A stretch of 63,187 nucleotides of DNA, filler included, from Lenisia limosa (Eukaryota; Protista; Breviatea): assembly GCA_001655205.1 (NCBI GenBank). It is 21 parts of 21 records of this genome, joined end to end, with 100 filler letters (N's around TTAATTAATTAA, not from the genome) between each part and the next. Parts side by side here need not be neighbours in the genome. Positions count along the whole stretch, not along the records: positions 1,357 to 2,636 come from LPNZ01006398.1; positions 2,737 to 4,713 come from LPNZ01009069.1; positions 4,814 to 6,341 come from LPNZ01004274.1; positions 6,442 to 8,312 come from LPNZ01003084.1; positions 8,413 to 10,026 come from LPNZ01002934.1; positions 10,127 to 11,403 come from LPNZ01004834.1; positions 11,504 to 14,365 come from LPNZ01003749.1; positions 14,466 to 16,022 come from LPNZ01003062.1; 13 more parts are not named here. One strand, 5' to 3'. The translations under genes and the position numbers were made by a program. Below are positions 2,430 to 31,818 of the stretch, piece after piece; the stretch's first letter is position 1; each line of letters opens with the position of its first letter. Below the pieces are notes generated by a model. That model saw only the letters and a program-made list of their open reading frames with translations. It had not been told where the DNA came from and did not search any database.

Positions 2430-2840
2430 CTGAGGGGGGAATAAAAAATGCGAAAATTTAACTACCAAAAAAAGCCAAAAATCAACTCTGTTAGCCAACA
2501 ACATACTAAAGCCATATAAGGAACCGACTTGCCAGAATGGAACCGACTTGCAATATAAGGAACCCACGTTTCATCATTGAAGGCGCCTCGTCAAAAAGAC
2601 TGAAAAGCGAGTCCCTATTCCCCAAATGGACCCTGCNNNNNNNNNNNNNNNNNNNNNNNNNNNNNNNNNNNNNNNNNNNNTTAATTAATTAANNNNNNNN
2701 NNNNNNNNNNNNNNNNNNNNNNNNNNNNNNNNNNNNTTATTAGAGATATTGGATTATAGTATAATATTAATTCACCCAATCATTTGCCTTACAACTGTGC
2801 ACACATAATAGTTATATATGACATGATATAATAATGACAC

Positions 2841-4705
2841 CCTGCAAACAGCTCGATAACCGCCAAGAAGCACGTGATAAAGTCTGGAATCGCCTTCAGA
2901 ATGGCCTTGGGCTGGATAGGGGGGGGGGGGTGAAATTGGAAAATTTATGAAGNNNNNNNNNNNNNNNNNNNNNNNNNNNNNNNNNNNNNNNNNNNNNNNN
3001 NNNNNNNNNNNNNNNNNNNNNNNNNNNNNNNNNNNNNNNNNNNNNNNNNNNNNNNNNNNNNNNNNNNNNNNNNNNNNNNNNNNNNNNNCGATATGTTTCA
3101 AGGAATTCAGTCTAATTTTATGACTAAAAGCCTACATTAGCGTTTCCGAGGTGGGAGGTTAGGACAGCCAGAGTTGCCACCAGGGTTGATAGAGAGTAGG
3201 AATGGCTGGCGATGGCAACGGTCTGAGGAGTAAAATTGGAAAATTTCTGAAACAAAAAAAAAGCCCAAATAAACTCTGTTGGCTGACAACACAAGAGGGT
3301 TGATAACAGAGTATAATTGGAAATTTATGATGGTGCTGATTGTAGTGATGATGGTGTTGATGTTAATAATGGTGATTGTTATGATGATGATGGAGATGAT
3401 GTTAGTAATTTTCAAGAACCCAATCAAAATCAGTACAAAAATATCCCGCTTACATGAGACGGCTTGATACTAAGGCAACAGACTCGGGAAATGCCGACAC
3501 AAACGCTCTGAAGTGCAAAAGGCAAGTCATCGACTGCGTTACCAAACTAGACGAGGACGGTGAAGGGAGTAAAATTGGAAAAGTATGAAACAGAAAAAGG
3601 CCAAAATCACCTCTGGCTAGTACAAAAATGACATACCACCCCCCACATGGGCTATAGGCCAGAGAATATCACCCAGGGCTGCAGCAACAGAAGGACCTAT
3701 GAAGTAAGTTTATTCAATGCCATAATAGACATAATTTTTCAAATAGTTTGTTGCACGATAGTTAAGAGAGTTTGTTGTGGTTTATATCATATGTAGTTAT
3801 CTCGGTTTTATTGAGTTATTATGATTCTGTTGAGTTATTGGGCGTTGACACTAGTTATAATAGGTTTTGTTCGATGCATTTCAATATGAGTAAAAGGGTA
3901 CCCTTTGCTAATATTCTGGTTTTTTTGGGTACTTCAGTCTTGGTGTTTTAGGGGGAATTTGGGACCCCCCCCCCTTTTTTTTTTTGGTTCTTAATGGAGA
4001 ACATGTTAGTACCTAAATGCTGGAAAGATATTCGAGTTATGATTCAATTAACAAAAACTACTAAATAGAAAGTTTATGTCCAGAACTTACCGGATAAGGA
4101 AAGTGGAATGGAAGCGGTGGCGGTGGAGACTGAGCGGATGATGTTATGTTGGGCGGGTTTGGGGAGGGTGTCTAAAATGTCAAATGTCTGTTAGCACAAA
4201 TGAGTCCTTATATCCATGCATACAAAGGGGGGTTGCGTTTCTTCGGACGGAAAGAACACGGAGAAACTTGCCAAAAGCGGTTAGCATATTGACTACAAAT
4301 GGTAAGTGCATTCCAGATAAGGCAAGTTAGTTTTCTTCATCAGATAAATTATCTAAATCCTCGACCCTCCCTTTCTTTCTCATTTGTTTTTACACGATAT
4401 TTTATCTTCGCTTCACCCCACTCTGTGAATCGGCAAGAGCGAAAGTCAGGTTCAGCTGCTGAGTATCAGCAACTAGCCGTCTGAGGGAGTAAAATTGGAA
4501 AATATATGAAACAAAAACAAACAATAAGAACCAAAATCAACTCTGTCCAGGGGAGGGAAGTGAATAACACGTTTAAAATATCACCCTTCCCCTCCAATAA
4601 TAGCATAATGTCAATATCATTTAATAATGTCAATAACCCCCCCACGATCGCGAAATAGTCTGGTCATGAGACAGTAGAGGGCCCTGGTAGAGAACTCCGA
4701 GAATC
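2841..4705 (-). CDS. Seven internal exons of an unidentified, probably alpha-helical protein
   Basis: Exons 4705-4646, 4480-4422, 4129-4091, 3696-3647, 3546-3454, 3222-3136 and 2911-2841 are all GT-AG and phase-compatible: ILGVLYQGPLL...RLVADTQQLNLTFAL...GPSVAAALGDILWPIAHFGNAVDDLPFAL...PKAILKAIPDFITCFLAVIELFA. Confidence 0.7.
3223..3310. repeat. Family B interspersed repeat abutting a minus-strand 3' splice site
   Basis: CTGAG-GAGTAAAATTGGAAAATTT...AAATAAACTCTGTTGGCTGACAACACAAGAGGGTTGATAAC. Confidence 0.85.
4481..4547. repeat. Family B repeat abutting a minus-strand 3' splice site
   Basis: CTGAGGGAGTAAAATTGGAAAATATATGAAAC...AAAATCAACTCTGT. Confidence 0.85.
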
Positions 4706-4919
4706 CTGGGGGGNNNNNNNNNNNNNNNNNNNNNNNNNNNNNNNNNNNNNNNNNNNNTTAATTAATTAANNNNNNNNNNNNNNNNNNNNNNNNNNNNNNN
4801 NNNNNNNNNNNNNTAAAACGAAGGAAATTTCGATGGCGTAAAGGAGCGATTTATGAATTCTTACACATCCTTCACACATTTCCAATCTAAGATCCTCTTT
4901 TCACCTCCGCTTCCCCCAG

Positions 4920-5052
4920 TATGCGTACAGCCGAGACCATCCCCATCGAAGTGTTCAAGGACTTTGCGCAATTGGGCCGCTTCATGCTTCGCGCAGACAC
5001 GCGCACTATTGGCGTGGGTGTTGTCATGAAGCTTCTTGACGAGGAAGACTAA
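4920..5052 (+). CDS. SUP35: Terminal exon of eukaryotic release factor 3 (eRF3/GSPT/Sup35)
   Basis: After a CCCCCAG acceptor: MRTAETIPIEVFKDFAQLGRFMLRADTRTIGVGVVMKLLDEED*. This matches the eRF3 C-terminus pattern RTAxTICLExFKDFPQMGRFTLRDEGKTIAIGKVLKL; HBS1 is less likely. Confidence 0.8.
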
Positions 5053-5690
5053 GTGTTTAGGTGCTAATTAATTCTAAATCTATTCGGAATGTGGGGTAGT
5101 GTGGAGCCTATATTGGTACTTCTGGGTGAAGAAGGGCTTTCTAAAGTCACTTGATATCATTTTGTTTTGGTTGATTTAACCAACTTGCGAGGGCTAGTCA
5201 TATTAGTGGGATCGATCCTTAACTAAAAAATGGATTGAAGTCAAAAAGAGGGAAAAGTTGTCCAAAGCACTTCTTCACTTGTTACAAATATAACTAAATT
5301 CTCCAACTTGTAGCCAGTTTATAGTCACCACAACCAAGTTTGGTCTCAGTTTCTAAATTTAGCCAAACCTTTCCCCATATTTATTTTCATATGTCCAGTT
5401 TATGCAGCAAAGAGATAAGTCAAAAAGAAGCAAAAGGACCACAATGGATTATAATCCTGATAAACCATGGTACTTTAACAAGTTGAAGCTGAATCAAAAC
5501 AGCAGAAAATTACTATACAATACCATTAGATCCTCAGAGGTCCGTGTAGAATTCGGGCTGGAGGGAGATATTAGATTGAAAATATGTGAAGGATGTGTAC
5601 TGTTTTATGAGGCGAAACAAAATAAAAGCCAAAACTCTGTGGCTCAATATTAGAGCCACAAGAGGAAGAAAAGAAGCACCTCGAATATTC

Positions 5691-5812
5691 CGTAAGGGGT
5701 GGGGGGGAGTAAAACTGGAAAATTTATGGAAGAAAAAAAACCCCAAATCAACTCATAATAGACTATGATGAAACAAAAAAGCCAGGAATCAACACTGCTA
5801 AACAATTGGGGA
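5691..5812. repeat. Family B repeat
   Basis: GGAGTAAAACTGGAAAATTTATG...AAATCAACTC, directly after a candidate plus-strand GTAAGG donor. Confidence 0.75.
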
Positions 5813-6678
5813 ACACACACGGGTTGAGGGAAATGAAGGGATAAATGAAGAATAGTGCCCCCTCCCCCACGCGCCGGTGTGAGGTACTTTGTTTTTTTTC
5901 TACCGATGTTCATTTGCTTCCCTAGATTTAATGCGTTTTATTCTGGCTCAAAAAACCCCACGCACCTCATTTTCAAGCAATTCAGCCGATTCATCCGTCG
6001 GCCTCTTCTGAACTGCCATATAGCCACCACCTGTTTTTGGTTATTATAATACATCAATATCCCCTCTGGAATTGCCATATAGGCACCGCCTGTCAGATGA
6101 TATGGAGAAATCACACATGTTTGGTTATGGATAAAAATACTCTATGGTTCTGGATATTCTAACTCAGTTATCATACCATACCACTGCATATGTCTTAGAT
6201 CATATAATAGTGTAAAAAAATTTCATCTGAAACAAATTAGAATGATCGGGCTCTTCGGTAGCATATGATATGGAGGAATGGGAAGTAAACAAAGTTGGTT
6301 ATGGACGAATAAAAATGAACAATTAGATTCCCCCCCCCCCCNNNNNNNNNNNNNNNNNNNNNNNNNNNNNNNNNNNNNNNNNNNNTTAATTAATTAANNN
6401 NNNNNNNNNNNNNNNNNNNNNNNNNNNNNNNNNNNNNNNNNTCAACTCTGTTGGCTTAGCACTAGGGAAACACAGTAAACAACAAAAACCCCAATCGCTT
6501 CTTCAGCACCACTCCAGCGTACGTAAAAAAAAAATAATTATCAAACAAACAAAAGTAAAACCAAACAAAACAAGGAGAAATGCCCCACTTGAGAAACAAG
6601 GAGAAATGCCCCACTTGAATCGGATGAAGCTCAGCCCATTGCTGAAAACCATATCAACCTCACTTTCTCCAACACCTA

Positions 6679-6772: not shown

Positions 6773-6797
6773 TAAACATAGCCTGTTTAAATAAAAC

Positions 6798-7002: not shown

Positions 7003-7341
7003 CTGGAGTGGTGAGCAGCGGGGGTGGGGGGGCAGATACACCGCACGCGATAAGCACTAACACGATTGACTGGAGATAAAGCTCAAGATCCATGTCAGGA
7101 CTTATCCCGGTCAGTGAAAACAGTATACACTCACCCCACGAACAATTACCTCCCCCCTCTTTTTACTCAATACCCCCTTACCCCCAGTATTCCAGGAGCT
7201 GCGTGTTTATCGACATAACTCTCGAGAAGGAACTAAAAGGATGAAATTGTCTTTTAAAAATAAAGGGGAAAAGAAGAAAAATGAAGAAGGAGAAGAAACT
7301 AAAAGGATGAAAAAAGAGAAGAGAAAAAACACGAAGTAATA

Positions 7342-7424: not shown

Positions 7425-8175
7425 TAGTGTTAACAAACCTGAATGGACTCCATTTTGCGCTCAATTGCAATTGACAAAGGTGACTCATCTAAATCTCAGT
7501 CAGACAGGGAAACGAAAAAAAGCCTTCCACACGATCACGCTCAGAAGAGATATTGGATTATTATATCTGGTCGAAGCCGTCNNNNNNNNNNNNNNNNNNN
7601 NNNNNNNNNNNNNNNNNNNNNNNNNNNNNNNNNNNGCATCATGTTTATGAAGAGATAAGAAATAAAAATGGGTAGTGTCTGGCCGAAGCCGTCCACACTA
7701 AAACCCCATAGTAAAAAACAAAATGTCAACGGCATTCACTTTTCGAGTAAAAACCAATAGAATGTAACGTTCCCCACTTTTCGAGTTGAGAGCACAAGGA
7801 GCAAGCTCGTACTTTGTCATCACCACCACACACGAGTACTTTTGCTGAACCACGGCCCAGTGCTAAAGAGTAATTAATATCCCTTTGTGATAAGTGAAAT
7901 CTCCGAGAAACAGTGTTCGCAGAAGTGGTATATTTGCTTTATCATTCCTATGTATTTTTTTTTGTTTTTGTAATGAAAACTATTGGTCTTCAAAAAACCT
8001 ACCCCCACAAACCAGGGGGGAGTATCCCATTTGGTCCGGGGCAGTCGCACTCATACCAGCATTTAGACAGAACCTGGGTATTTGGTTTAGGGGGGAGTGA
8101 AGATTTATAACTAGGAAAGGGCTGAAAGAAAGGTAATTACGATGCAGTTTATGATATGAACACACCCTACCCTTG

Positions 8176-9289: not shown

Positions 9290-9952
9290 CCAATTCAGGA
9301 GTTGACGCCCAAATAGCGTCATATTCCGGAACTGTCATGTAGAGGAATACGCCTTCCATGGCACCTGGGGGTGGGGGATATAATTAGAAAACTTATGAAA
9401 CAAAAAAGCCCAAAATCAACTCTGTTGGCTGACAACGCACGAGGGTTGAGAACAACAAAACAAACAAAGGTCGCTTCTGCAGCACCGTATCCTATCACTC
9501 CAGTGGGGTGGAGGTAAAATGGTGAAACAAATCACAAAATCAACTTGGATGGCTTAATTTGATGTGGTCATTCGGGGTGAAAGGAAACTTGGATGACTAT
9601 TGTGTAAAGACCAACTAATCTGAAACTCCAAACAAAAAACAAAAACAATAATATAACCAATAACAAACATTCATGAGCAACACACTTTAAAACTAAACCA
9701 AGATGACACACACACAGGTCAAATGTCGAGTAATTTACTGACACTCCAAACAGCCAATACAAACCATACCCCACCAGGACTCAAAATTGCATAAAAGACA
9801 ATCAAAACATCACAAAACAACTCAAAAACACCAACCAATACCCCCATACTCTGCAGTAACTGAGCCTCCAGCACCATATCTAGAATAGCTGCGTTCAATG
9901 CTCGGTTTGCCTTGACACCCCCCATTTTTAGACGGCCTAAACGTTCCGTGTC
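9290..9952 (-). CDS. Two internal exons of an unidentified protein
   Basis: 9952-9850 (DTERLGRLKMGGVKANRALNAAILDMVLEAQLLQ) and 9364-9290 (SAMEGVFLYMTVPEYDAIWASTPEL) splice in phase. Confidence 0.6.
9365..9520. repeat. Family B repeat, near full length, abutting a 3' splice site
   Basis: ...GAAACAAAAAAGCCCAAAATCAACTCTGTTGGCTGACAAC...CGCTTCTGCAGCACCG. Confidence 0.9.
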
Positions 9953-10271
9953 CTGGGGGGAGGGGGGATTGGAAATTTTTGAACCAAAAAAGCCCAAAAT
10001 TATCTCTGTTGTCTTAAAACCCATAANNNNNNNNNNNNNNNNNNNNNNNNNNNNNNNNNNNNNNNNNNNNTTAATTAATTAANNNNNNNNNNNNNNNNNN
10101 NNNNNNNNNNNNNNNNNNNNNNNNNNATTACGTTGATAGCAGGAAAATACACAATCTAAGGATACATGGTGAGGAATTATGACGCAATAAAGCACAAAAT
10201 CAACTGTACAAAAACAATGTCCATTATGTTAACAGTTTATGAGGGAAAGGTGCATTATTTTGACTGTTTAG

Positions 10272-11027
10272 AATGTAGTGAAGGTTATGACTGGTGACGT
10301 CTCCTTCAAGCTCCTTGCTTACAATGCTGATACCACTGTTGAGGTTGGTGGTGGTGGTGATGATGATGATGATGATGATGATAATGATGATGGTGGTGGT
10401 GATTGTGATATGACAGGTGATTTGTTGTCTTCACCCCCTCATCATTGTCATTTGTATTTCCTCTTTCACCGCATCCCACCCCTCCACTGGAGCGGTGGGA
10501 TGCGGTGCTGCAGAAGCGACNNNNNNNNNNNNNNNNNNNNNNNNNNNNNNNNNNNNNNNNNNNNNNNNNNNNNNNNNNNNNNNNNNNNNNGATTGTTTTT
10601 TTGTTTGTCCAATTTTACTCCCCCTAAACCCCTAACGTTCCGTGTTACTACCCCTCGATTTCCTTCGTTTTACCTTTAGGACATTTGCTGCTCCGTCGCC
10701 AGCAAGCTGAACCTGTCCGAGGATGAGCAGCCCTATCACATGCTCTTCGAGCCGGCCCCTTCCGATGGTGGGTGAAACATTAGAATATTCCGATTGTTTT
10801 GAGGGCATTATTCGCGTTTTCATTCTGCTCACTGTACAACTTCGTATTGCTCGAAAAAGACGAAATTCAGTCTTTTTTCGAACCAAAGTGAAGCCTTAAT
10901 TGCCAAAATTACGGTCACTCTTATTGCCCCAGGAGAGAGGTTCATGAAAGATGAGGAGAAGATCATCGACACTGTCGGCGGCGTATTTGGGGCCCAGCAT
11001 CTTCTCTATAAGAAGATCCAGTGTTAA
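10272..11027 (+). CDS. Last three exons of a protein ending in a ubiquitin-fold RA / FERM-F1 domain
   Basis: Exons 10272-10343, 10680-10767 and 10933-11027 in phase: NVVKVMTGDVSFKLLAYNADTTVEDICCSVASKLNLSEDEQPYHMLFEPAPSDGERFMKDEEKIIDTVGGVFGAQHLLYKKIQC*. The TTVEDIC..VA.KL.L...LFE...ER...E.I.D pattern is typical of RA/FERM_N. Confidence 0.7.
10465..10679. repeat. Family B/E repeat (reverse) ending at the plus-strand acceptor 10678-10679
   Basis: Hairpin ACCGCATCCCAC..GTGGGATGCGGT, then CCAATTTTACTCCC and ATTTCCTTCGTTTTACCTTTAG. Confidence 0.8.
10838..10896. mobile_element. Family A MITE, partial (intronic)
   Basis: Right TIR GTCTTTTTTCGAACCAAAGTGAAGCC. Confidence 0.65.
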
Positions 11028-11294: not shown

Positions 11295-11403
11295 GCGGGG
11301 GGGGGGGAGTAAAATTGGAATTTATGAAACAAAAAAAGGCCCAAAATCAACTCTGTTGGCTGACAACACACAAGGGTTGATAACAACAAAATAAACAAAG
11401 CCC
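11295..11403. repeat. Family B repeat
   Basis: G-run followed by the consensus B sequence. Confidence 0.85.
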
Positions 11404-11924: not shown

Positions 11925-14289
11925 AGTGATGTTTTCCTTTTTTCTCCCTCCGAGCCTCCTTGACGCGGAGAGTTGGCTCCTTCTTCCGTCGGGTGTTCTT
12001 TTCGGCCTTTAGTTTCCTAATACGGTCGCGCTCCTCTTCCTCAGCGGCAATACGGGCGTCAGCTGCTGCCTAATTTCGTAAGTCATCAAAGTTTAATTTT
12101 TCCTAATATAGTACATGATATTCCTAATATGGTAGATTTCCTTCGAAACAGTTACATCGTCCTTTTCTATTTGGGGTGTTTTTTGTTGAACAACCGTCAA
12201 TGGAGACTGTATTATAAAAAAAATAGAACTTCACTTTCGGTTCCAAAAGACTGACAAAATATCGATATTTATCGAGGATTTATCGAGATTTCAGTCTTTT
12301 TTGGAACCGAAAATCAAGTAAAAAAACAGTCTCATCCACGCACCTGTTTAGCCTCAGCCTCCTGTTTTTTCTTCAGGGACTCCTCCTCGATCTGCTGGTC
12401 AAGTCGCTTCTTCTGCTGCAATCGGATTTCTCGTTTCTGGGACGAGGTAAAATGAAGGACATTTTGATCTAAGCAAAAGGTACTCATCATAATAGTAAGA
12501 GATTAAGGGCGAGGCTATTGAACACAAATCATCGTGGTATGAAGAACACCCCCCCCCCAAGTACCCTCTGTTCATCTTCTCGCTTCTTTTGTCGCTCCGC
12601 TTCAGTGGTTTCCTAATATGGTAATTAATAAGGATTATGAGATGTAAAAGGTAAAATAACAACGATGGCAATACTCCCGGGTGTTAAACTGTAATAACTC
12701 TTTCACCTGTCAAGGTAATCTCGTACCTTGACAGGTTGGACCTTTTTTGTTCGCTTTCGCCGAGATTTTGAGGACTCAACAGGGTCAGCAAGCTAGGCAA
12801 TGAGAACGTTCAAACTGTTCGGAAATATCAAGATACTCTCGCTCAAAGGGTATGGGAATAATTCTGAAAAGAGCATGGTTATTTGGTATGATTGAAATAA
12901 TGTTTTTTTCATATAATACTATATACAAGCCCAAAAACAGAAAATCAGCTTACCTCCGATTTTTCTGGTGTGACCGCCTTCTTTTCCTTGACGGGAATGG
13001 ATTCGGGATCAGCTTTGGGGGGAGACTGGGTGATGCTGGTGAGAAGAAAACTGTACAAGTTGATTGGAGACCAGGGCTCGGAATCCTTAAATTGAACTCA
13101 TAGTATATATGATATAATATAGACATGAGAAATAAAATCTGGCTAGTAATATATAAAACCCAATGGCGCTACTTCGGTTCGAAAAAAGACTGAATTTCTT
13201 GATAAATCCTCGAAAACTATCGATATTTTGCTTTTTTTTTTTCGAACCAAAGTGAAGCCTTAGCGACCATCCATTCCATCCATCCCACTTTAGCTTCGGG
13301 CACGGGTTCTCTTGGCACAGTGGGGGGAGAAACAGGAGTCTTCTGCGGCCTTCTTCCCTTACCAAACTGAGTGGTTAAAAGATTGTCCTGCAATAAAGCT
13401 CTAAAACAAATCCTCCACAAGGTGAGCTGAAGAGAAAAGAAAATCTTTTGTGATTTGAGTATTGAGCAAGTGATATGATGAGGGTTTGAGCAAGTAATAT
13501 AATGAGAGTTTGAGCAAGTGATATGATGAGAGTTTGAGCAAGTGATATGATGAGAGTTTGAGCAAGTGATATGATGAGAGTTTTAGCAAGTGATATGATG
13601 AGAGTTTGAGCAGGTTCGTGAGTTCAGTAATTCTTCCCCCTTGTCCACATTTCTGTCAACCCCCAAAGTCATCGATGTGAGTAGTATGTCTGGCAACCCC
13701 TTTAGCCGTTTCTGAGGGTTGAGTGTTTTACGTCTTGTAAACTTTTTGACAACACCAAATCTATTGGGTCCGTTTTGGTATTGTCAAAAAGTTTGCGGGA
13801 CAAAAACCTTAACACCCAGAAACGGCTGAAAAGGGGTTCACAGATACTATCAAGAGCATAGTGAAATTCTGGAACCCCCCCCCCTCCTGTATGACCCGCA
13901 TACACGAACGGGCGGAAGTTTTTCTTTTTTCTTTTGCCAGCGCTCCTTTGGTGTGGGTTCTGGGGAGGGTCAGGGACAAGAAACAACAGTAATTTTTTTT
14001 TGTCAAAATAACCCCCAGAATGCGCCCTCTCAATATATGAAAAGAAAACTACATCATATTTAGCTAGAGCTTCACTTCGGTTCGAAAAAGACCGGAAAAA
14101 TATGGGTAGTTTTCAAGGATTTATCGAGAAATTCAGTCTTTTTTCGAACCGAAGTGAAGCCCTACATTCAGCTCAGAGACATCCTCTCATACGTGTTTCA
14201 TTGCAATAGCTGTTCAGCATGAGAATGTAGGTCTGGAGTTCGCCGTCAGTAACAGGTCCAAAAAGTGTGTTGGTGGAGGGATTTTGTAG
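11925..14289 (-). CDS. Multi-exon protein with a charged coiled-coil region (partial)
   Basis: GT-AG exons include LQNPSTNTLFGPVTDGELQTYILMLNSYCNET, ETTEAERQKKREDEQR, KREIRLQQKKRLDQQIEEESLKKKQEAEAKQ and AAADARIAAEEEERDRIRKLKAEKNTRRKK. Linking all exons into one gene is inferred. Confidence 0.55.
12226..12318. mobile_element. Family A MITE (intronic)
   Basis: TIRs plus core. Confidence 0.8.
13165..13260. mobile_element. Family A MITE (intronic)
   Basis: TIRs plus reverse core. Confidence 0.85.
13458..13612. repeat. Minisatellite, 24-bp unit GTTTGAGCAAGTGATATGATGAGA
   Basis: About 6 units, intronic. Confidence 0.95.
14067..14162. mobile_element. Family A MITE, near-consensus
   Basis: TA-GAGCTTCACTTCGGTTCGAAAAAGACC...GTCTTTTTTCGAACCGAAGTGAAGCCC-TA. 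Confidence 0.9.
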
Positions 14290-14569
14290 CTAGGAGGGGG
14301 GGAGGTAAAACGAAGGAAATTTAGATGAAGAATATTAGCGTAAAGGTACTAATCACGAACTGAATNNNNNNNNNNNNNNNNNNNNNNNNNNNNNNNNNNN
14401 NNNNNNNNNTTAATTAATTAANNNNNNNNNNNNNNNNNNNNNNNNNNNNNNNNNNNNNNNNNNNNAATAAACTTGTGCCTAGCCTTTTTATTATTATTTT
14501 ATTTTATTGTTTTACACAAATAATTACATGTTTTAGTTATATTTGGCAACTAATTGCCAATTCTTTCTG

Positions 14570-16185: not shown

Positions 16186-16263
16186 CAGTGACCGGGATAA
16201 GTCTTGACCGATTTGCTATGTTATTTCCCAAGGGAAGTCGGTCAAGACTTATCCCGGTTACTT
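16186..16263. mobile_element. Family D Tc1/mariner-type MITE
   Basis: TA-CAGTGACCGGGATAAGTCTTGACCGA...TCGGTCAAGACTTATCCCGGTTAC, roughly 26-bp TIRs. Confidence 0.85.
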
Positions 16264-17653: not shown

Positions 17654-17922
17654 GTGAAAGGCCAATCAAACTTCGTGATAGCTGGTTCTCTCCGAAATAT
17701 ATTTAGGTATAGCCTCTAGTAGTAGCATGTAGGGGTAGAGCACTGAATGGGCTAGGGCTGCTTACCGCGGTACCAAACCCTATCAAACTTCGAATACTAC
17801 ATGTGCAATCTAGGGAGTCAGGCGTAGGGTGATAAAATCCTATGTCGAGAGGGGAACAACCCAGACTAACAGCTAAGGTCCCAAAGTTACATCTAAGTGG
17901 AAAACGATGTGGAGTTACTGTG

Positions 17923-17971
<49 letters not shown>

Positions 17972-20876: not shown

Positions 20877-20988
20877 GATGAGAAATAAAAAAAGGTTGTA
20901 TTTGGTAGAAGCCGTCCGTCCACACCATCACGCTCATAAGAGATATTGGATTATAGCATTACATTAATTCACCCAGTCATTTGCCATA
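20877..20988. repeat. Family C interspersed repeat (longest copy)
   Basis: GATGAGAAATAAAAAAAGGTTGTAT.TGG..GAAGCCGTCC..CACCATCACGCTCA.AAGAGATATTGGATTATAG...TTAATTCACCCA.TCATTTGCCATA. Other copies or fragments near 2130, 2745, 7530-7700, 8590, 8945, 11150-11220, 11504-11575, 22230-22315, 23415, 32870, 45510 and 51697. Confidence 0.85.
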
Positions 20989-21325: not shown

Positions 21326-23374
21326 GTCATTCTTCGACCACAATCCCCACCAGTTCTCGTTCCTGTCTAAATCAACCCGTCGTTGTGGTGGAGGTTGCTG
21401 GGGATTTAGAAGTATATAGTCGACCGCTGGATCTCTATGATCCTAGTTTCAATAGAGACTTTACTGCAAAAAAGAAATATCAAATACAAGACCATCTTGG
21501 GTGACAACATTAAAGTCATAGTGATAGTAATAGTGGTAATTGTTTTTGCAAGAGTAGAAAACGTTTAGTTAGAGAAGAAAAGGTAGCGAAATTTGTGAAA
21601 CACAAGGACTTGGAGAATATTTCCGATTCAAGATTTCAGATTTCCTCCCTATCCTTATATTACCTGTATATTATGTGAATGTGGTGGTTTGTTGTTTTTT
21701 CAAAAATTGTTCAATTTCACACCCCAGGGCCCAATATTCTTTTCGACACCGTGGAGACATGGTCGGAGAAATCGCCGAAATCGCGACCACACTTCTGGCC
21801 CCTCCAAACGGCCCTCCTTGTACGCCCTGGCATTTGGTTTACCTTAGTTGAATTAGCGCGATAATCAAATAAACTTGATTTTTCAAGAAATGTTATAATG
21901 TGCACAGGTTAGAAAATTAGGCAAATGATTGGGTGAATTAGTATTAGAAATAGTATTTGGTTCGAAAAAAGACTGAATTTTTCGATAAAGCCTCGAAAAC
22001 TATCGACATTTAACGAGTCTTTTTCGAACCGGAGTGAAGTTCTACATATCGATATACTCATTCATATATACTTTCATCTGACAATCTAGCTGCTCTGCCC
22101 CGACATCCTGGTGGACTTGATTCTCAAGAAGAACAACCTTGGAGAGACACAAATGAAGGTATTTGGAGGTGAAGATTGTAGTTGCGGTATAACTTGTAAC
22201 ACAAATGTTTGTGAGATTACTATTAGATGTATATAAGATAGTATATCATAATCCAATATCTCTTGATGTCAACGGATTCGGGCAGAAACAATTTTTTCTT
22301 ATCTTGATACTAATCGTATTATTTACATGTATAAATGGATTGTATGTTCATCCAGAGAATAATCCTTGCCTATTCATTCTCACACGTTCACTCTTTAGAA
22401 CAAGTTCCTTCAGGAGCTTCATGATGCCCTTAATGTAAGCCCAAATAGACACCTATTTTAAGTCCATATATGAAAATCATATGATTTGTATAAATAATAT
22501 AATTATATAATACTATGCATGAACAATGCATGATATTGCATATCACAGAGTGTTGTTTGACTTACTTGGTAGTAAATAATTATTGATCTGGATACTTTGT
22601 GAACCAATATGACCAACATGGACTGTAAAATAGCACAAACAGGCCGTATTTGATTTATAAGACCTGAATTACTTTTGAAATTATTCATTTTTGGCTTTTG
22701 TAATTCATTTTCTTGGATGATGGATCTTTAGTTATAATAAATACAACTTCTTCCCGATTGATTTCGTACCACTGTCATCTTTCAGAACCCCAAGAGCCAC
22801 ATGCACAACACTGCTATTGCTTGTTTTACTGATATCGTGCTCGCCGCTGCCCATGTAGAGAAACNNNNNNNNNNNNNNNNNNNNNNNNNNNNNNNNNNNN
22901 NNNNNNNNNNNNNNNNNNNNNNNNNNNNNNNNNNNNNNNNNNNNNNNNNNNNNNNNNNNNNNNNNNNNNNNNNNNNNNCAACTTTTCAAACATGTTAAAC
23001 AAGCTTTCTTGCGGGATATAATATACTGCGATAATTGTAGTGTACAAGCTTTTTTGCCAGATTATGTGTGTCATGACAAATCGCATTTATGACTTCCAGA
23101 CATGTCATCTCTTCGGTTCATTTCTGCTGATGTGGATAATATTCTGACGGTATGAGGGATATTGGTGGTTGTGTTGGAGGTAAGGCTTCACATCGGTTCA
23201 AAAAAGACTGGTAAAATTTGAGGGTTTATTGAGAAATTCGGTCTTTTTTCGGTTGATGTGTTTTTTTGAGCAGTTTTTTTTGGAAATTTCATTTTTCTTT
23301 GGATTAGTTTGACATCTATAGCAACGTTGTATTCTTCACCCTGAATCCCCCCCTTCTCCCAAGCTCATTATCGG
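21326..23374 (+). CDS. NF1: Neurofibromin / IRA-like RasGAP, N-terminal HEAT region (7 internal exons)
   Basis: Exons 21326-21393, 21728-21819, 22090-22158, 22399-22434, 22786-gap, 23100-23149 and 23322-23374 give SFFDHNPHQF...GGPNILFDTVETW...FWPLQTALLLLCPDIL...KFLQELHDAL...AIACFTDIVLAA...ILHPESP. This is collinear with NF1 LFDxVDGF...VWPLQIILLILCPEI...LFLDSLRKAL...AAIACVKLCKA...LLFNPSKP. Confidence 0.82.
21955..22042. mobile_element. Family A MITE in NF1 intron
   Basis: TIRs plus reverse core. Confidence 0.8.
23183..23253. mobile_element. Family A MITE, degenerate, in NF1 intron
   Basis: Left TIR plus partial core. Confidence 0.7.
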
Positions 23375-23540: not shown

Positions 23541-23618
23541 ATTGACCGGGATAAGTCCTGACAGATTTTCCTTGGGGAAATCACATAGCATATCGGTCAA
23601 GACTTATCCCGGTCACTG
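23541..23618. mobile_element. Family D MITE
   Basis: TGACCGGGATAAGTCCTGAC...GTCAAGACTTATCCCGGTCACTG. Confidence 0.85.
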
Positions 23619-24004
23619 CGTGTATATCATATACTATATGATATATCATGTTAATGTTCCATTTTTACTCCCCTCCCCCCAGAAGTCCCTCCTCCCCGAG
23701 TTCAAGGCGGGTCATGTGCTGAGAACGCCAAGAAAGGNNNNNNNNNNNNNNNNNNNNNNNNNNNNNNNNNNNNNNNNNNNNNNNNNNNNNNNNNNNNNNN
23801 NNNNNNNNNNNNNNNNNNNNNNNNNNNNNNNNNNNNNNNNNNNNNNNNNNNNNNNNNNNNNNNGGTGGAATGTCAGGCAATTGTTAAAGCTTCTTTCGTG
23901 TATATTCCCAAAGAAGCCTAAGTGATACCATGAAGTAGATCATACCACTTTTGGGATCATTTCCCACGTGTGAACTATCATTTTTCAAGCAGTGATATGA
24001 TACT

Positions 24005-24351: not shown

Positions 24352-24353
24352 TC

Positions 24354-24391: not shown

Positions 24392-24392
<1 letters not shown>

Positions 24393-25993
24393 AATATATC
24401 ATATGCGATTATTTAAAACGGAGGGAGGCGGCATTTGTTGCAGCCGCTCATTGTGTAAGCGAGGCAGGTACAAGATTTCGTAGCAATACACAATACTATC
24501 ATATAGAGATTGAAGAACTATTTAGTTCTCTCGTATTCAAATCACAACTCTCTAATAGGTACCGAAAATTCCACCTTCTTTTTTATTAACTCCCGCTCAA
24601 TTTTGAAACTTTTTTCAAAAGGCCTCAAAAAATCGAAAAATTGAGGAAGCATTGGTGGGCATTAAAAATGTCCAGTCGGTGGGCCCAATTCGGTGGGACC
24701 TTAACAATGTCACCAAAACCAAAAGCTAATAGCAAAAAAACCATCCCAAGAGCCATAAAAAAGGCGTAACAGGGAACCAAACCCCCTTCCTTCAAATTCG
24801 CAACAAATCCTTCAGATGTGACCATATCATCTAACGGAAGATGGGGGAGAAGCTTTGACAATTGAAACAACCATCAACTCTGTTTAGGGTGGGGGTACCA
24901 TGGGGAAAATACATCTCAAAATAATCTACAAGACAATATCACAAATTAGAAACCTAGAAACAAAAAATACCAATTAACTGAAAACAAGATTTGCCATAGA
25001 GTACAGTGCGTTTGGAGGCTCCAGGTAATTCAAGCTCCGGTCGCGCATGTACTGCCTAAAGCAACTGAGGATCTTCGTCACTGTTGTGCTGAAATGTGAG
25101 AATGGTTTTGGTCTTTTTCATTTGCTCCTTTTTCATTTCATTTTGGCCCTTTTCAGGAAGTTTTGGACTGCGGATATGGAAAGGCTCGCTAACGAGTTGA
25201 CACATCCGTGTTTACCTCAAGGAATTTCAATATTCATATGTGTAGCAGCCCCAATAAATTAAAACGTAACATCATATGATAATATTAATAGATTATAGAT
25301 AGGCATATACTATATATCATATGCATATATAATAAATATATATATTATATATAGTATATCATATATATATTATATATACTATGATACATACATNNNNNNN
25401 NNNNNNNNNNNNNNNNNNNNNNNNNNNNNNNNNNNNNTTAATTAATTAANNNNNNNNNNNNNNNNNNNNNNNNNNNNNNNNNNNNNNNNNNNNCAGTGAT
25501 TATTCCCAGTTTTTTTTTGCAAATAACAATCGGCTGCCAGCGATATGCAGTGGTGGTCTAGCGAAAAACCCGTTGGTAATAGTTGGAATCTCCACAGAAA
25601 ACTGGAAAATAATTTACAAGTTGTTATCAATTTCAGAATCGGGCAGTCCATGCGGCCGGACTTTTTACTACTATTTTTAAAATGGAGCATCTCAAGGGTA
25701 AGTAAATGTGTAAATATTGGTCATTTCCAATTGCATTTTTCATCTTCCGGCCGCATGGAGTTTTGTTTGGAAACAAAAATAAAACCCCAAAGCAACTTTG
25801 ATGGCTGACAACACGCAAAATCAACTCTGATGGCGAAGGGTGTGTATGCCCCCCACATCTTCACTCGAAACAACTCCCATTTTTCAATATTAGTGACCAG
25901 GATAACACCAATTTGCTTTGATTTTTCAAGGAAAATCGGTCAAGCCTAATCCTGGTGACTGTAACATCTCACTATTACTCCCCCCTCCCCCAC

Positions 25994-26962
25994 TATGGGA
26001 TGCAGAGGAGAAGTTGGACGCTAAGGACCGGAGTGACGGGTCTGAGACGATTGTGTCGGCTGCGGGGGGGGGGGGGGNNNNNNNNNNNNNNNNNNNNNNN
26101 NNNNNNNNNNNNNNNNNNNNNNNNNNNNNNNNNNNNNNNNNNNNNNNNNNNNNNNNNNNNNNNNNNNNTGTATTTATTGGTATCCTAACATTGCAGTTAT
26201 CAACAATAATAGAAACACTTGTGTATTTGGGCAACTAATCACATTCCCTCCAACAGAAAGTATTGAAAAAACATTTTATATGAAAAAAATAATAATCAAA
26301 AGCAAAAAAAAAAAAAAAAGAAAGANNNNNNNNNNNNNNNNNNNNNNNNNNNNNNNNNNNNNNNNNNNNNNNNNNNNNNNNNNNNNNNNNNNNNNNNNNN
26401 NNNNNNNNNNNNNNNNNNNNNNNNCCACGTTTTGTAGGTTTTGGAGAGTCACACCAGCGTGCACGTGACCCGGGCCGTGGGGGGGTGTGGGCTGATGCGC
26501 GCGAAATGTTCATTTCTGCGCGTGATTGTGCCACACTTGCGTTTTCAGGCTCTTCTTCAACTGCGGGGGGTGTGTTGGAAAATCGATGAAACATAAAAAA
26601 AGAAGCTCAAAATCAACTTTGTTGGCTGACATCACACGAAGGTTAAGCGCAACAAAATAAACAAAGCCCAGGCCAGTCGCTTCCGCAGCGCATCCCCCCA
26701 CTGAAGTAATGGGAATATTTGAGAAACAAGAAGAAACAAAAACCTCTCCTCACTATATATAGTTCCTCCTCCCTCCATGTCTTCGGTAAAATATCGATAG
26801 GTTTCGAGGATTTATCGAGAAATTCAGTCTTTTTTCGAATCAAAGTGAAGCCCCACATATACCCCCTCCCACCGATATCCTGAGAGGACACGGGCCGGAC
26901 GGGGTGGCCGGATAGTCTGCTACCCGGCCGAGACCCGGGTTTCGGGGTACTTCGCTGCGATC
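25994..26962 (-). CDS. Exons of a Ser/Pro/Arg-rich low-complexity protein
   Basis: SQRSTPKPGSRPGSRLSGHPVRPVSSQDI joins in phase to VEEEPENASVAQSRAEMNISRASAHTPPRPGSRAR. A further exon, ADTIVSDPSLRSLASNFSSASH, lies beyond an N gap. Confidence 0.5.
26561..26702. repeat. Family B repeat abutting a minus-strand 3' splice site
   Basis: CTGCGGGGGG..GGAAAATCGATGAAAC...GTCGCTTCCGCAGCGCATCCC. Confidence 0.85.
26781..26854. mobile_element. Family A MITE, left-truncated
   Basis: Core plus right TIR. Confidence 0.8.
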
Positions 26963-27397
26963 CTGTGAGGGGGGGGGGGTAAAACGAAGGAAATTTCGAT
27001 NNNNNNNNNNNNNNNNNNNNNNNNNNNNNNNNNNNNNNNNNNNNNNNNNNNNNNNNNNNNNNNNNNNNNNNNNNNNNNNNNNNNNNNNNNNNNNNNNNNN
27101 NNNNNNNNNNNNNNNNNNNNNNNNNNNNNNNNNNNNNNNNNNNNNNNNNNNNNNNNNNNNNNNNNNNNNNNNNNNNNNNNNNNNNNNNNNNNNNNNNNNN
27201 NNNNNNNNNNNNNNNNNNNNNNNNNNNNNNNNNNNNNNNNNNNATATACTATATCGAAGTAAATATAGTACATATTATGATATATGATACGTACATATGA
27301 TTCATCACGTATTTATTATGATCTTAATACTTCCTGGGGGGGAGGGGGGATATGAGCGTGGATGCAAGATAAATAAAAAAAATAGTTACTTATCATC

Positions 27398-28194: not shown

Positions 28195-28290
28195 GGGCTT
28201 CACTTCGGTTTGAAATTTTTTGATAAACTATCGATACTTTTCGAGGATTTATCGAGAAATTCAATCTTTTTTCGAACCGAAGTGAAGCCC
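28195..28290. mobile_element. Family A MITE
   Basis: AGGGCTTCACTTCGG...CCGAAGTGAAGCCCTA. Confidence 0.9.
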
Positions 28291-28411
28291 TAGTTCTTGG
28301 GAGTGGGTAATATTGGAAATTTTATGAAACAGAAAGCTCAAATCCCCCCCTCCCCCATACCAGGACATTATCCGATTGCGAGACTTCTAGAGGGTGGTCA
28401 GGGACGTCTTC

Positions 28412-28462
28412 AGCTGCACAATAAGTCAAAATAAGGCAAAATAAGGCAAAAATAAGGCAAAA
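28412..28462. repeat. Short tandem repeat AAATAAGGCA
   Basis: About 5 units of 10-11 bp. Confidence 0.85.
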
Positions 28463-30036
28463 TAAGGCAAAATAAGTCAAACTGAATGAGGCAATATGAG
28501 GCAGAATGAGGGGATGGAATAGGAATAGAGAAGAGGGATAGGTTGGTAAGAAGGCAAAATGTGCGGCAAAGAGCACCACCAATACAACCTCATTGTGCTA
28601 TGAATGTTTTTTTAAAAAAATATCATATGTACATGTATAGTATATATACATATACGTATATTATTTTTGATAAATCTTATCATATGAGATACCTCCCCCC
28701 CCCCCTTTTCTGAATCCAAGCCGTCTGCACAGAGTTTGGCAGGTGAGCTGTCTCCTTCCCCAAATGATGGATAAATTAATTATTGTCACTAATCATAAAG
28801 CGATATTATTGTAATAAAAATTGTTTTATTATTATTATAATTATTTTTACAAAACTTTGCTTCCCCCCCCCCCCNNNNNNNNNNNNNNNNNNNNNNNNNN
28901 NNNNNNNNNNNNNNNNNNTTAATTAATTAANNNNNNNNNNNNNNNNNNNNNNNNNNNNNNNNNNNNNNNNNNNNCCCCCTTACTTGTGTGTTGTCAGCCA
29001 ACAGGGTTGATTTTGGGTTTTATTTGTTTCATAAATTTTTCAATTCTACTCCCTATATAATCCTTCAGGTTTGTTTGTGAAAACTCCATCCAGCGCCACT
29101 ATGAGGTTATTAACAAGTGGGGGGCGGAGTTAAAAAGTATCACTGAACTCAAGAAAACACTGTAATTGTATCGAAACAGCCCTTTTTAAAGAGAAGGGAC
29201 AGATTCCTTTCCAGTAATTTTTCTGGAACAAATTCAGTAATTTCTGGAAACTCTTCCCAATAGTCGAGAATTCCATATATATATACTAACTCAGTAGATA
29301 TGGAGTCTATGGCTCTTGAGATTCCCGTGGTCCCTTGATTGTTCCTGTTTTACTTGTCTGGTTCCGTTTATGACTATGCCTCTCTTGCGACTTTATCCCG
29401 ATTTTGAAGTGAAGTTTGACACCACAAAATATCATATTATACTCAAGCTACAGCTTCATATTAATTAAGTATGACTACGGTTCGAGGCAGTTTTGCTAGG
29501 CTTTTAACCTGGCTCCTGTGTATTTTAAACACTTTAAGATTTGACTAATGGTGATTACGTGTATTATATAAGATTTTACTCGTATTAACCAGCCAGCTTT
29601 AACTGTCACTCCAGAGTTGAAGAAATCCCAACATTGCATAAAACTAAACTAAAACATTCCTAAATTGCTACTTATTCCTCCGCCTCCACACAGACCTAAA
29701 ATTGTGAACCGTGTGATAATGTCACAATCACGCTTTGAGATCTTTTACCAAATCATTTGCATTCTACATAATTACACTATTGTATTGTTACATAAAGCAA
29801 AACATACTCTCCCCCGCAAACCTCCTCCATTACATGAGTTGGTGCATCTGAAGAAGTGTGAAAAATGAAAAAGAGTGTAAAATGTTCAGTGTGGAAAATG
29901 AATAAGTGTGGAAAATGGAGTGAGGAAATAAAGCAAATACAAAAAAAAAAATCTTAAAATTGAGAGACCACCCCTTATAACTCGGTTCGACACATTGTTA
30001 TCAACTTTATCAGTTTATTATCAACAAAGAGCTTAC

Positions 30037-30532
30037 CCGCTTTCTCTTGTTCTTCAGTTTTCACTTCTTCCTTTTCCTCTTCAACCTTTTCCTCTTCCTT
30101 CTTTTCTTCCTTTTCCTCTTCCTCTTCTTCCTTCTCCTCCAACACAACAGCAGTTTGCTCTTCTACTCCCATACTTTCTTGTACAACAGCAGTTTGCTCT
30201 TCAACAACAACACTTTCTTGTACAGCAGCAGTTTGCTCTTCAACCACAACACTTTCTTGTACAGCAGCAGTTTGCTCTTCAACCACAACACTTTCTTGTA
30301 CAGCAACAGTTTGCTCTTCAACCACAACACTTTCTTGTACAACAGCAGTTTGCTCTTCCACCACTGCTTCAGAAACTTCAACAACCTCAACCACTGCCTC
30401 TGCAATCTGTGGGGGTAAAAAAATAATAAAATAACAGGTGATTGTAACTAATATTCAAAATACCAACCTGGGGGGCCGCGATTTCCTCCTCCTGCGCCAC
30501 AGCCACCTCCAGCTCCTCCTCCATGGGGGCTT
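30037..30532 (-). CDS. Acidic Glu/Val-rich protein with 13-aa tandem repeats (two exons)
   Basis: 30532-30468 and 30406-30037 splice in phase: EAPMEEELEVAVAQEEEIAAPQ-IAEAVVEVVEVSEA-(VVVEEQTAAVQES)x~5-EEKEEEEEEKEEKK. Confidence 0.7.
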
Positions 30533-30663
30533 CTGAAAGGTCACAAATAGTAGGGCTCCGTGCAATACGTTGATGAATAAATTGCAAAATTTGGATAAAT
30601 TCTTCAAAGTATTAATTTCACAGAGTCCTACAAAATAGATTGTTTGTTCAATATTTGTTTTTC

Positions 30664-30741
30664 CATAACTTGACTAAAAGCGATGAGAACCACACTTTTG
30701 CAATAACTTGACTAAAAGCGATGAGAACCACACTTTTGCAA
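30664..30741. repeat. Direct duplication of about 40 bp
   Basis: ATAACTTGACTAAAAGCGATGAGAACCACACTTTTGCAA twice. Confidence 0.9.
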
Positions 30742-30819
30742 CAAAATCGTGTTTTACACAAATATTCTAACTTCCTTCAATGTGATACTGTGGTGGTGAC
30801 GTAATATGAAGTGTGCATA

Positions 30820-30888
30820 CAGTGACGATGACAACGGATATTGAGCTTTATCTTATGTTTATCGAGTCAGGACTTATCGCGGTCACTG
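30820..30888. mobile_element. Family D MITE with TA on both sides
   Basis: TA-CAGTGAC...GTCAGGACTTATCGCGGTCACTG-TA. Confidence 0.7.
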
Positions 30889-30997
30889 TAAAGGACATCG
30901 AACAACTACATACTGGTAAAGGTCTAAAAACTCGCTTTGATCTTTGATCCTGTTTGCCCCCTTTTCCCCGGTATTGAACTTTTGGTGTTGTGTACTA

Positions 30998-31058
30998 GAG
31001 CTTCACTTACGATCCGATTTTCCTAAATTCAGTCTTTTTTGGAACCGATATTGAGGCT
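30998..31058. mobile_element. Family A MITE, internally deleted
   Basis: Both TIR ends, core mostly lost. Confidence 0.65.
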
Positions 31059-31644
31059 CAAGTATGGATGTACCCACTATATATTATTTCACAAATTGGC
31101 CAGTTTGATTTCGATAAAAACTAAATGAAAAGCAAGTTGGCATTCTATGAAAGTAAAATGAAAAATTTTAAAATACAAATGTAAATTCACCCCCAACACT
31201 ATGTTTGTTCTTGCTTGTTTTTTGTTTTATGTTTGTTTTTGGGTTTATTATTCGGTTCGTGATTCTTTACGCCAATATTCTTCATCGAATACTCTGGATC
31301 TGGCCTGGGCTATGTTTGTTTTGTCGTTTTCAACACTCATGCGTTGCTGGCAAACAGAATTGATTTTGGCCTTATTTTTTTTTAAATAATTTTCAAATTT
31401 TACCCCCCCCTCCCCGCACCAATCACGCCAAAAGCGACTTCGACGCCATCAACGATCTTGACCTCTTCCTCCGTGTACTGGGGGGAGNNNNNNNNNNNNN
31501 NNNNNNNNNNNNNNNNNNNNNNNNNNNNNNNNNNNNNNNNNNNNNNNNNNNNNNNNNNNNNNNNNNNNNNNNNNNNNNNNNNNNNNNNNNNNNNNNNNNN
31601 NNNNNNNNNNNNNNNNNNNNNNNNNNNNNNNNNNNNNNNNNNNN

Positions 31645-31818
31645 TGGAGGGCGTAAAACGAAGGAGGTTTTGATGAAGAATATTGGTGTAAAGGTACTAA
31701 TCGTCAAATGGGAAAATTTATGAAAAAAAACAAAGAAGCCAAAATCAACTCTGACAACACAAGAGGGTTGATAACAACAAAACAAATTGAGCCCACACCA
31801 GTCGCTTCTGCAGCACCC
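31645..31818. repeat. Composite E+B repeat showing the two families are contiguous
   Basis: GTAAAACGAAGGA..GATGAAGAATATTGGTGTAAAGGTACTAATC runs straight into GGAAAATTTATGAAA...CGCTTCTGCAGCAC. Confidence 0.8.

Follow-up and report, generated by a model that had tools for sequence, protein, structure and literature searches.

Two interspersed repeats of Lenisia limosa lie at splice acceptors and are best read as mobile modules

Introduction

Does a repeat that ends again and again at 3′ splice sites make introns, or does it settle in introns that are already there? The question arises in Lenisia limosa, an intron-rich microbial eukaryote, from a window of 63,187 nucleotides, filler included (the whole stretch of DNA analysed), in which 21 short scaffolds of assembly GCA_001655205.1 are joined by linkers. 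From the sequence of this window, an element designated B/E had been proposed to lie antisense against acceptors and to form their pyrimidine tract, either as an introner-like element or as a mobile element that is either directed to acceptors or retained there. The 3′ splice signal is normally kept free of mobile DNA; if the second proposal is true, B/E would land in this signal genome-wide and take it over.

Two repeat families with a common fixed end

Alignment of the window copies separates B (~140 nt) from E (at least 65 nt), both non-coding and high-copy, which have in common only a terminal hexamer and a C-run; the original prediction had missed that these are two families, as well as the donor-facing copies and the head-to-tail stacking described below. 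In the same alignment B/E have one fixed end, formed by the hexamer and a C-run whose length varies between copies, and another that is variably truncated, and such a fixed 3′ end with a simple-sequence tail and variable 5′ truncation is a hallmark of retroposons. The far end of B is one defined end common to many copies. DNA depth suggests thousands of copies in the genome. Recent mobility is suggested by copy number; no allele with an empty site was found. Pattern searches in the JGI metagenomes gave no match to B/E. No small-RNA head (tRNA, 5S or 7SL) was detected, the sole Rfam result for the window at gathering scores being bacterial LSU rRNA, and a Pfam search of 25 window ORFs brought up neither a reverse transcriptase nor another autonomous partner, LINE included, only a weak piggyBac-like match.

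Copies are stacked head to tail at 6442-6560 and in ORFs with two modules, and C-rich sequence flanks many copies on both sides. The near copy scores above the far copy in 4/5 stacked pairs against a consensus built from near copies; this makes the scoring circular, and a polarity with the newest copy nearest the exon was not counted. Some tandem junctions have no C-run (6442-6560; P0010, P0014, P0035, P0172) and therefore suit rolling-circle or recombination copying as well. Head-to-tail arrays are typical of Helitrons and HINEs. Together with the one variable end, the arrays speak for a reading of B/E as non-autonomous DNA elements, either rolling-circle and HINE-like or simple-repeat-targeting transposons like the microsatellite-targeting MITEs, which would find their target by chance in the C-run ahead of acceptors; such MITEs cluster with the target repeat between them, according to the accessible text of PMC8449440. 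The ends of B speak against this reading, being unlike each other and without terminal inverted repeats, as does its folding, which is no better than that of shuffles (z 0.19, -1.15, -0.97). The fixed-length target duplication of MITEs was likewise not seen in B, in contrast to a true TIR MITE in the window. Nor were the subterminal inverted repeats, the 3′ hairpin or the target between A and T or between T and T that mark Helitrons and HINEs found in B/E: their flanks are C-runs and YAG, as against the TT or T-rich sites of HINEs in the available part of PMC4067079. We regard a DNA element as distinctly unlikely.

Adjacency to acceptors inside the window

The window count comprises the 22 B/E copies with a visible G-rich end (sites in Table 1). 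Copies that run into a gap at that end (4814, 6442, 31646, 54320) were excluded from it, as were degenerate copies in inner positions and weak matches. A reverse-strand YAG lies within 6 nt of the C-run in 13 of the 22, against 19% in random flanks (p = 4e-5), and within 3 nt in 11, against 13% expected (p = 3e-5); beyond the 13, three sites (3547, 12437 and 29068) have a YAG 9-20 nt from the run by inspection. All 13 sites originally named (2430, 2912, 3223, 3547, 4481, 9365, 9953, 10679, 12437, 14290, 20330, 26561 and 26963) were recovered, and acceptors 21727, 23682 and 29068 were added to them. The 45 nt past the B/E-adjacent AGs have a coding score above that of random YAG sites (p = 1e-5), with 9953 poor (-3.4) and 2430 and 26963 near zero.

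RNA support among these sites covers one acceptor, 4481, which is used, since 4422-4480 and 4646-4707 lie directly side by side in RNA contig 15 of run X2; the repeat-bearing intron 4481-4645 is spliced. Most exons of this gene have no RNA cover, a lack that is uninformative either way. For the gene around it, two exons of which were scanned without a Pfam match, the predicted association of B with four introns stands, and the count of seven exons and six introns does not: an extra exon at 4224-4292 makes eight exons, so B marks 4/7 introns.

Table 1. B/E copies and associated features in the window
Position	Strand	Feature	Remark
2430-2508	-	B with its end at acceptor 2430 of intron 2430-2567	frame joins across intron
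2841-4705	-	host gene fragment, 8 exons	single open frame; junction 4646/4480 in RNA contig
4705-4646, 4480-4422, 4292-4224, 4171-4091, 3696-3647, 3546-3454, 3222-3136, 2911-2842	-	exons of the host gene	
2912-2951	-	B end at acceptor 2912, gap-cut	
3223-3321	-	B at acceptor 3223; degenerate second B end behind, near 3308	
3547-3620	-	truncated B ~17 nt from acceptor 3547; 100-nt intron, G-run donor	
4481-4548	-	truncated B at RNA-confirmed acceptor, intron 4481-4645; C-rich stretch upstream too	
4706-4713	-	acceptor and C-run cut by scaffold end; element not visible	
4814-4848	-	donor-facing E in intron before last exon of plus-strand eRF3/EF1A-like gene	
5691-5754	-	B, probably facing plus-strand GT donor; exon putative	
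6442-6560	-	B far end head to tail with degenerate B start, no C-run between	by eye
9365-9555	-	full-length B (9369-9507) at acceptor 9365; degenerate B behind (9517-9555)	
9953-10026	-	B at putative acceptor, weakest site	frame joins, coding score -3.4
10605-10679	+	B stub then E, ending at plus-strand acceptor	
11295-11403	-	near-consensus B; GT precedes G-run, no exon established	
12437-12493	-	E at acceptor of intron 12437-12564; G-run after donor	
14290-14362	-	E at acceptor 14290	
20331-20398	-	diverged E at acceptor of intron 20331-20522	
21686-21727	+	B stub at plus-strand acceptor	absent from original prediction
23655-23682	+	B stub at plus-strand acceptor	absent from original prediction
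25970-25993	+	B-like stub, G-run after minus-strand GT; probably donor-facing	assigned to B by eye
26561-26704	-	full-length B at acceptor of intron 26561-26872, G-rich donor	
26963-27000	-	E at acceptor 26963, gap-cut	
28299-28344	-	truncated B without adjoining AG; TIR MITE beside its C-run end	
28982-29068	+	B ~17 nt before plus-strand acceptor; G-run donor after short exon	
31253-31419	+	donor-facing B (31284-31411) and E remnant	frame joins, three exons
31478-31829	-	acceptor with C-run, gap, then E then B	
54220-54381	-	far part of B beyond a G-run and a gap, downstream of MBOAT gene	probable copy away from splice sites
61735-61783	-	truncated B	

Orientation mostly agrees with the sense of the host gene, as had been claimed, but a minority of copies face a GT donor: 31419 (predicted, in a joining frame), the E at 4814, and probably 5691 and 25992. 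At the first of these, the G-run of the B follows the GT of a predicted intron, 30533-31419, in a minus-strand gene. The short exon beside the stub at 25970-25993 also has a C-run acceptor, gap-cut, at about 26061.

C-runs alone are an insufficient explanation, because B/E lies on 7/42 AG-adjacent runs in the window and on 8/251 other runs (p = 0.002). Poly-C as the ordinary acceptor of this genome was ruled out, at least five C being present in one of 55 control acceptors; the control introns are predictions from a region-wise gene parse of the window, some of them probably wrong. The last bases before the AG differ from site to site, as fits a host origin of those bases. A rival route would need no dedicated element: breaks at fragile C/G runs would be repaired by copying another intron end that starts with such a run, through templated repair or through gene conversion between acceptors, a few acceptor modules spreading from run to run. 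This would suit the C-runs on both sides of B, the likeness of B and E in hexamer and run only, the assembly gaps that fall on the G/C runs of B/E sites and the lack of a partner enzyme in the scanned window ORFs; however, B/E is present on only 15/293 G/C runs of at least 4 in the window and favours those next to an AG six-fold, many copies have one defined far end, and run-less junctions exist. We consider repair copying unlikely.

Introns with B/E are 100-485 nt long, against a median of 72, and G-run donors occur in 5/9 B/E-ended introns but in 3/55 predicted control introns (p = 8e-4), a link that may be regional. Both features could be explained if insertion were free of preference and selection kept the copies able to restore an acceptor or make it stronger, for example by pairing of C-run and G-run donor across the lengthened intron; end-to-end pairing helps splicing in zebrafish, as far as the available text of PMC4691745 describes. 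Purifying selection should, however, leave most copies in harmless places. The TIR MITE of the window has 9/34 ends near YAG, many from its own terminus, mammalian elements are scarcest near acceptors (PMC3088655, in the part available), and the predicted folding of two whole introns does not exceed that of shuffled sequence (z -0.72, 0.14). Selection as the sole source of the pattern is, in our judgement, decidedly improbable.

Copies outside the window

A second sample, drawn from other contigs, consists of 126 ORFs whose frame stays open across the C-run of B. The residue after the run is AG-compatible in 86 of them (42% expected, p = 4e-9) and glutamine follows the proline run in 29 (7.9% expected, p = 1e-7); the predicted proximity to AG is borne out here as it is inside the window. 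A mixture fit places 68% at acceptors (bootstrap 53-80%; an upper estimate) and 7% (0-17%) facing donors, with about one quarter fitting neither splice site; the donor signature itself, histidine or threonine after the C-run, is not above chance (15/126). The acceptor share is 47% of 24 short-tailed versus 75% of 101 long-tailed ORFs; the sample favours long ORFs and therefore exons. In kinesin, phosphatase, ankyrin, galactokinase and thymidylate-kinase ORFs the C-run is directly followed by the start of a conserved domain. Human kinesin-1, GALK2 and DTYMK presumably have introns that correspond in position to three of the B sites; two were looked up without result, and none is counted. Proline stands just before full-length B in 18/32 ORFs versus 4/32 further upstream (p = 5e-4), representing a C-run or the end of an earlier module, an excess that splitting or duplication of the target would produce. 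Of 214 B-containing ORFs, 18 also have E modules and six have two B modules.

Probable insertion into existing introns rather than creation of new ones

Introners create introns and are similar up to both splice boundaries, as described in the accessible portions of 10.1101/2022.06.06.494994, PMC12130899 and the review PMC11282704; the introner survey of Gozashti et al., to the extent of its available text, set other cases aside as secondary insertions into pre-existing introns. That B/E make up only the 3′ part of longer introns, as first proposed, is confirmed by nine introns with both ends visible, in which the acceptor sides align and the donor sides do not: the twelve best acceptor-side pairs score 26-45, whereas donor-side 35-mers have no likeness beyond G-runs and a best local score of 22. 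Under the introner option, B/E-ended introns would occupy positions absent from relatives; this was not so at the one locus checked. At the codon of the thymidylate-kinase host intron, 54/149 homologues from other organisms are broken, 50 of the 54 with a YAG-compatible residue, and this one intron, judged by its homologues, occupies an old, shared position.

One-ended similarity and an old host intron at one locus leave the introner-like option unsupported; as far as sequence can tell, B/E, covering only the 3′ end of introns whose 5′ parts are unrelated, is not an introner. The signature could still descend from introners with eroded or replaced 5′ parts, given one 100-nt intron (3547-3646) that is mostly B and the resemblance of G-run donor and C-run acceptor to inverted ends. 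Near-identical B copies should, however, have kept their 5′ ends, the donor-side comparison offers no trace of them, and the thymidylate-kinase intron, common to many other organisms, contradicts such an origin at that locus, making it very improbable.

A model for the spread of B/E

The other option of the original prediction, a mobile element targeting or retained at acceptors and forming their pyrimidine tract, finds support both within the window and beyond it. Given what was observed directly (position, orientation, splicing at one acceptor, the old position of one host intron, fixed and truncated ends, and stacking), the best reading is that B/E are non-autonomous mobile modules, with retroposition, DNA repair copying and rolling circle as candidate routes. 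They likely copy into already existing introns rather than making new ones, as found for one intron. The account we favour, to which we give a little less than an even chance, holds that B/E, whose fixed end lies mostly within a few bases of an acceptor AG in host-gene sense, likely arrive by copying into existing intron ends, likely primed by pairing at the C-run and most likely through retroposition with a reverse transcriptase from elsewhere. Weighing against it are the lack of such an enzyme among the scanned window ORFs, the run-less tandem junctions, the quarter of outside copies that fit neither splice site, and target-site duplications, of which no clean case could be demonstrated.

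Under this account, a module would insert into the last nucleotides of an existing intron, primed by pairing at the C-run, while the reverse transcriptase would be supplied from elsewhere. The C tract and branch-point-like motif of the module would take the place of the former 3′ signals, so that insertion would be tolerated; B/E would supply the new pyrimidine tract and probably a branch point. Since the intron ends with the module, splicing would release an RNA whose 3′ end is the C-run and AG, and the best pairing partners of this RNA would be other C-run-AG sites. A G-run donor would be the same target on the other strand and would account for the donor-facing minority. A more specific version, which we put forward as possible but doubtful, is a splice-site parasite: the retroposon RNA would be the spliceosome-cut 3′ end of the excised intron, pairing by C-run and AG with other acceptors and spreading from acceptor to acceptor, so that thousands of old introns would have had their branch point and pyrimidine tract rewritten. 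Literature searches found no published precedent for such acceptor-bound repeats.

A family that takes over the 3′ splice signal genome-wide would offer a route for replacing the splice code of a lineage, here from T-rich to poly-C tracts, without intron gain or loss, and thousands of natural replicates would be available for splice-signal turnover and for adaptation of U2AF or of a poly(C)-binding protein. One-ended similarity is the class that surveys of repeat-derived introns, in their accessible text, set aside as secondary insertion.

Comparison with known systems

The likenesses that follow are limited to the accessible portions of the papers cited. Zebrafish AC/GT bridged introns (PMC4691745) have complementary end runs, as do 5/9 B/E introns with G after the donor and C before the acceptor; there they are simple-repeat expansions, whereas B/E is a dispersed element for which end pairing is hypothetical. 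The pineapple mt-MITEs (PMC8449440, where rice Micron appears beside them, by reference title) are likewise short, non-coding, flanked by simple repeats and stacked in clusters, but they have terminal inverted repeats and a (TA)n target, with no link to splice sites in the text available. DINE-1 and other HINEs, non-autonomous Helentrons (PMC4067079), are also short, very abundant and non-coding and have no clear target duplication, yet B/E showed no sign of their TT target, 3′ stem-loop or inverted repeats in subterminal position. In introners, too, the repeat reaches the splice site and contributes splice signals; they are similar at both ends and make new introns, whereas B/E is similar at one end and the tested intron is old. 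Antisense Alu, finally, is a short repeat with a homopolymer end that can serve as a pyrimidine tract, whereas the tract of B/E is poly-C at apparently constitutive acceptors and the exon is host sequence. Mobile elements are depleted near acceptors in mammals, where a cryptic acceptor from an antisense Alu is harmful (PMC3088655); in Lenisia limosa, in contrast, B/E copies sit beside acceptors.

Structure and abundance of B and E

Profiles made from the window copies resolved two repeat families, B (about 140 nt) and E (at least 65 nt), which have in common only the terminal hexamer TTTTAC, read on the C-rich strand, and the C-run of variable length that follows it. Most copies keep the hexamer and C-run end whole; truncation is frequent at the opposite end. 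The reads matching the window come from a single study and comprise X1, a DNA-like run that may be the assembly's own source and is not independent of it, and X2, a poly(A) RNA run. Contig depth in X1 sums to 242,730 for part of B, compared with 35 for the single-copy flanks; such sums give no copy number and are usable only as an order of abundance, and read only as such they put B in the thousands. B-B and B-E arrays occur both in the window and in protein ORFs from other contigs, and some of their junctions lack the run.

Position relative to splice sites

The window consists of 21 short, linker-joined scaffolds from an intron-rich eukaryote, with Pfam matches to MBOAT, GrpE, a phosphodiesterase and an eRF3/EF1A-like C-terminus. 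The run can be seen in 22 copies; in 13 of these a YAG acceptor motif lies at most 6 nt from it (19% expected, p 4e-5), and in three others within 20 nt. The remaining six include one that sits behind E at the same acceptor, one that is intron-internal and away from an AG, two without an assigned splice context, one that lies after a donor and joins the frame (31419), and one that probably follows a donor (5691). In controls, YAG is found near 9 of 34 TIR MITE ends (p 0.02 versus B/E), and one of 55 predicted ordinary introns carries a C-run of at least 5 at its acceptor; among 293 G/C runs of at least 4, B/E occupies 7 of the 42 adjacent to an AG versus 8 of the 251 others. Sequence downstream of B/E-adjacent AGs scores as coding (p 1e-5, under a model trained in part on exons of the very genes scored), reading frames join across the B/E introns tested save in one trial, at 28154, and a shallow RNA contig (depth 3.5) links 4480 to 4646. 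The predicted adjacency of B/E to acceptors is thus borne out. The further claim that orientation tracks the gene strand holds in plus-strand genes, where the arrangement is mirrored, and does not extend to the copies behind donors. B/E copies are few on long scaffolds, partly because the assembly breaks at G/C runs.

The last bases ahead of the AG differ between B/E sites, which suggests that they belong to the host. A putative branch-like motif, YTNAY, lies 8-14 nt from the intron end in 36 of 55 ordinary introns and at 9-20 nt in 13 of 16 B/E acceptors (a raw count), where it is as a rule the terminal hexamer itself. Donors with G-runs accompany 5 of 9 B/E acceptors versus 3 of 55 controls, and whole-intron folds, computed for two introns, are no better than shuffles.

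Copies outside the window

Because the C-rich strand of B keeps open frames, gene callers have placed spurious ORFs through B in the databases. Searching three times with aligned translations of B retrieved 9, 85 and the best 120 of 344 such ORFs, every one sourced from ENA and lying on a contig 0.6 to 64 kb long; these contigs are assumed to belong to the same organism. In 126 of these 214 ORFs the B anchor is followed by a proline run; 52 have no run, 30 end earlier and 6 lack the anchor. Directly behind the run stands glutamine in 29 of the 126 (7.9% expected) and an AG-compatible residue in 86 (42% expected). A four-class mixture fitted to 125 ORFs gives 68% acceptors (53-80%), 7% donors (0-17%) and 26% neither; the first figure is an upper estimate because the sample favours long ORFs, and the acceptor share is 47% among 24 ORFs with short tails. 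Pfam gave no match in most of the outside ORFs scanned; in five, a conserved domain starts directly after the run: kinesin (P0097), ankyrin (P0170), dual-specificity phosphatase (P0003), galactokinase (P0043) and thymidylate kinase (P0145). Full-length B also has a proline just before it in 18 of 32 ORFs, compared with 4 of 32 at positions further upstream; such a proline stands for a C-run or for the end of a preceding module. Window copies and outside ORFs together support the option of a mobile element that targets acceptors or is retained at them.

Age of a host intron and the introner question

The 37-residue thymidylate-kinase exon of P0145 was compared with cluster representatives. Among 149 homologues (the best 150 of 522 matches, less P0145 itself), 87 run on upstream without a break, 54 break off at the same codon and have unrelated sequence before it, and 8 are too short to be classified. 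The residue before the break fits a YAG acceptor in 50 of the 54 (46% background, p 6e-13), and six homologues seem to show an upstream exon end and intron read-through; none of the listed upstream stretches contains B-like sequence. At this one locus the intron position is therefore widely shared and B was added at its end, and the new position expected of an introner, checked here only, is not borne out. Many of the homologues P0215-P0363 likewise end or lose similarity where this exon ends downstream, and the intron there, left out of the counts, looks shared as well.

An introner survey defines these elements by similarity at both intron ends and sets secondary insertions aside (10.1101/2022.06.06.494994). 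B/E introns differ, in that the donor sides of nine are unrelated save for G-runs. On this ground, and given the shared position at thymidylate kinase, the introner-like reading was rejected.

Mechanism

The acceptor association of B/E is real and genome-wide, and B/E is a target-specific repeat, of unassigned mobility class, that acts on pre-existing 3′ splice sites. Retroposition primed at a C-run fits best, given the fixed homopolymer end, the variable truncation opposite and the target-like sequence on both sides; we give it about an even chance. In a bolder, hypothetical version, splicing itself would release the template RNA. Less likely alternatives are that repair copies the modules from run to run, that B/E is a DNA element of rolling-circle or repeat-targeting type, or that insertion is random and selection acts on the copies.

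Features of the window
Positions	Strand	Feature	Remark
10679, 21727, 23682, 29068	+	B/E at acceptors	Mirror-image arrangement
10470-10520		Near-perfect palindrome at B far end, about 14 bp	Perhaps an inverted duplication of the B end
4706, 26061, 31478, 42411, 57665		Acceptor-like YAG abutting a G/C run cut off by an assembly gap	Gaps may hide B/E
27334, 41430		C-run adjoining YAG, then sequence neither B nor E	Candidate additional families that share the acceptor habit
14068-14162, 28195-28290		97-nt MITE with long terminal inverted repeats	Examples of 24 copies; served as control; ends look hAT-like
16188-16262, 7070-7113, 23543-23578, 16835-17010		Second small inverted-repeat element	
16864-16963		97-nt MITE	Appears nested in the second element
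2130-2180, 2742-2796, 7545-7581, 20880-20985, 22250-22300, 51690-51747		Two more dispersed repeats, often together	X1 depth at 2737-2802 as high as over B; copies also in X2
34545-35454	-	Disrupted remnant of a piggyBac-like transposase	Weak DDE_Tnp_1_7 match, E 7e-4
35800-38400		Apparently decayed mobile DNA, following the remnant	No Pfam match
17654-18789		Bacterial LSU rRNA scaffold in the eukaryote bin	Contaminant or associated bacterium
29995-30406	-	Exon with 39-nt tandem repeat	Encodes 13-residue E/Q/V-rich unit

Comparison with known systems

Searches of mostly open-access full text yielded no description of a repeat colonising existing acceptors; a genome paper on Lenisia limosa may mention it. 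In human and mouse, elements are depleted near exons, most strongly near acceptors (PMC3088655). The systems described in PMC12130899, PMC11282704, PMC8449440, PMC4067079 and PMC4691745 are related to B/E and different from it.
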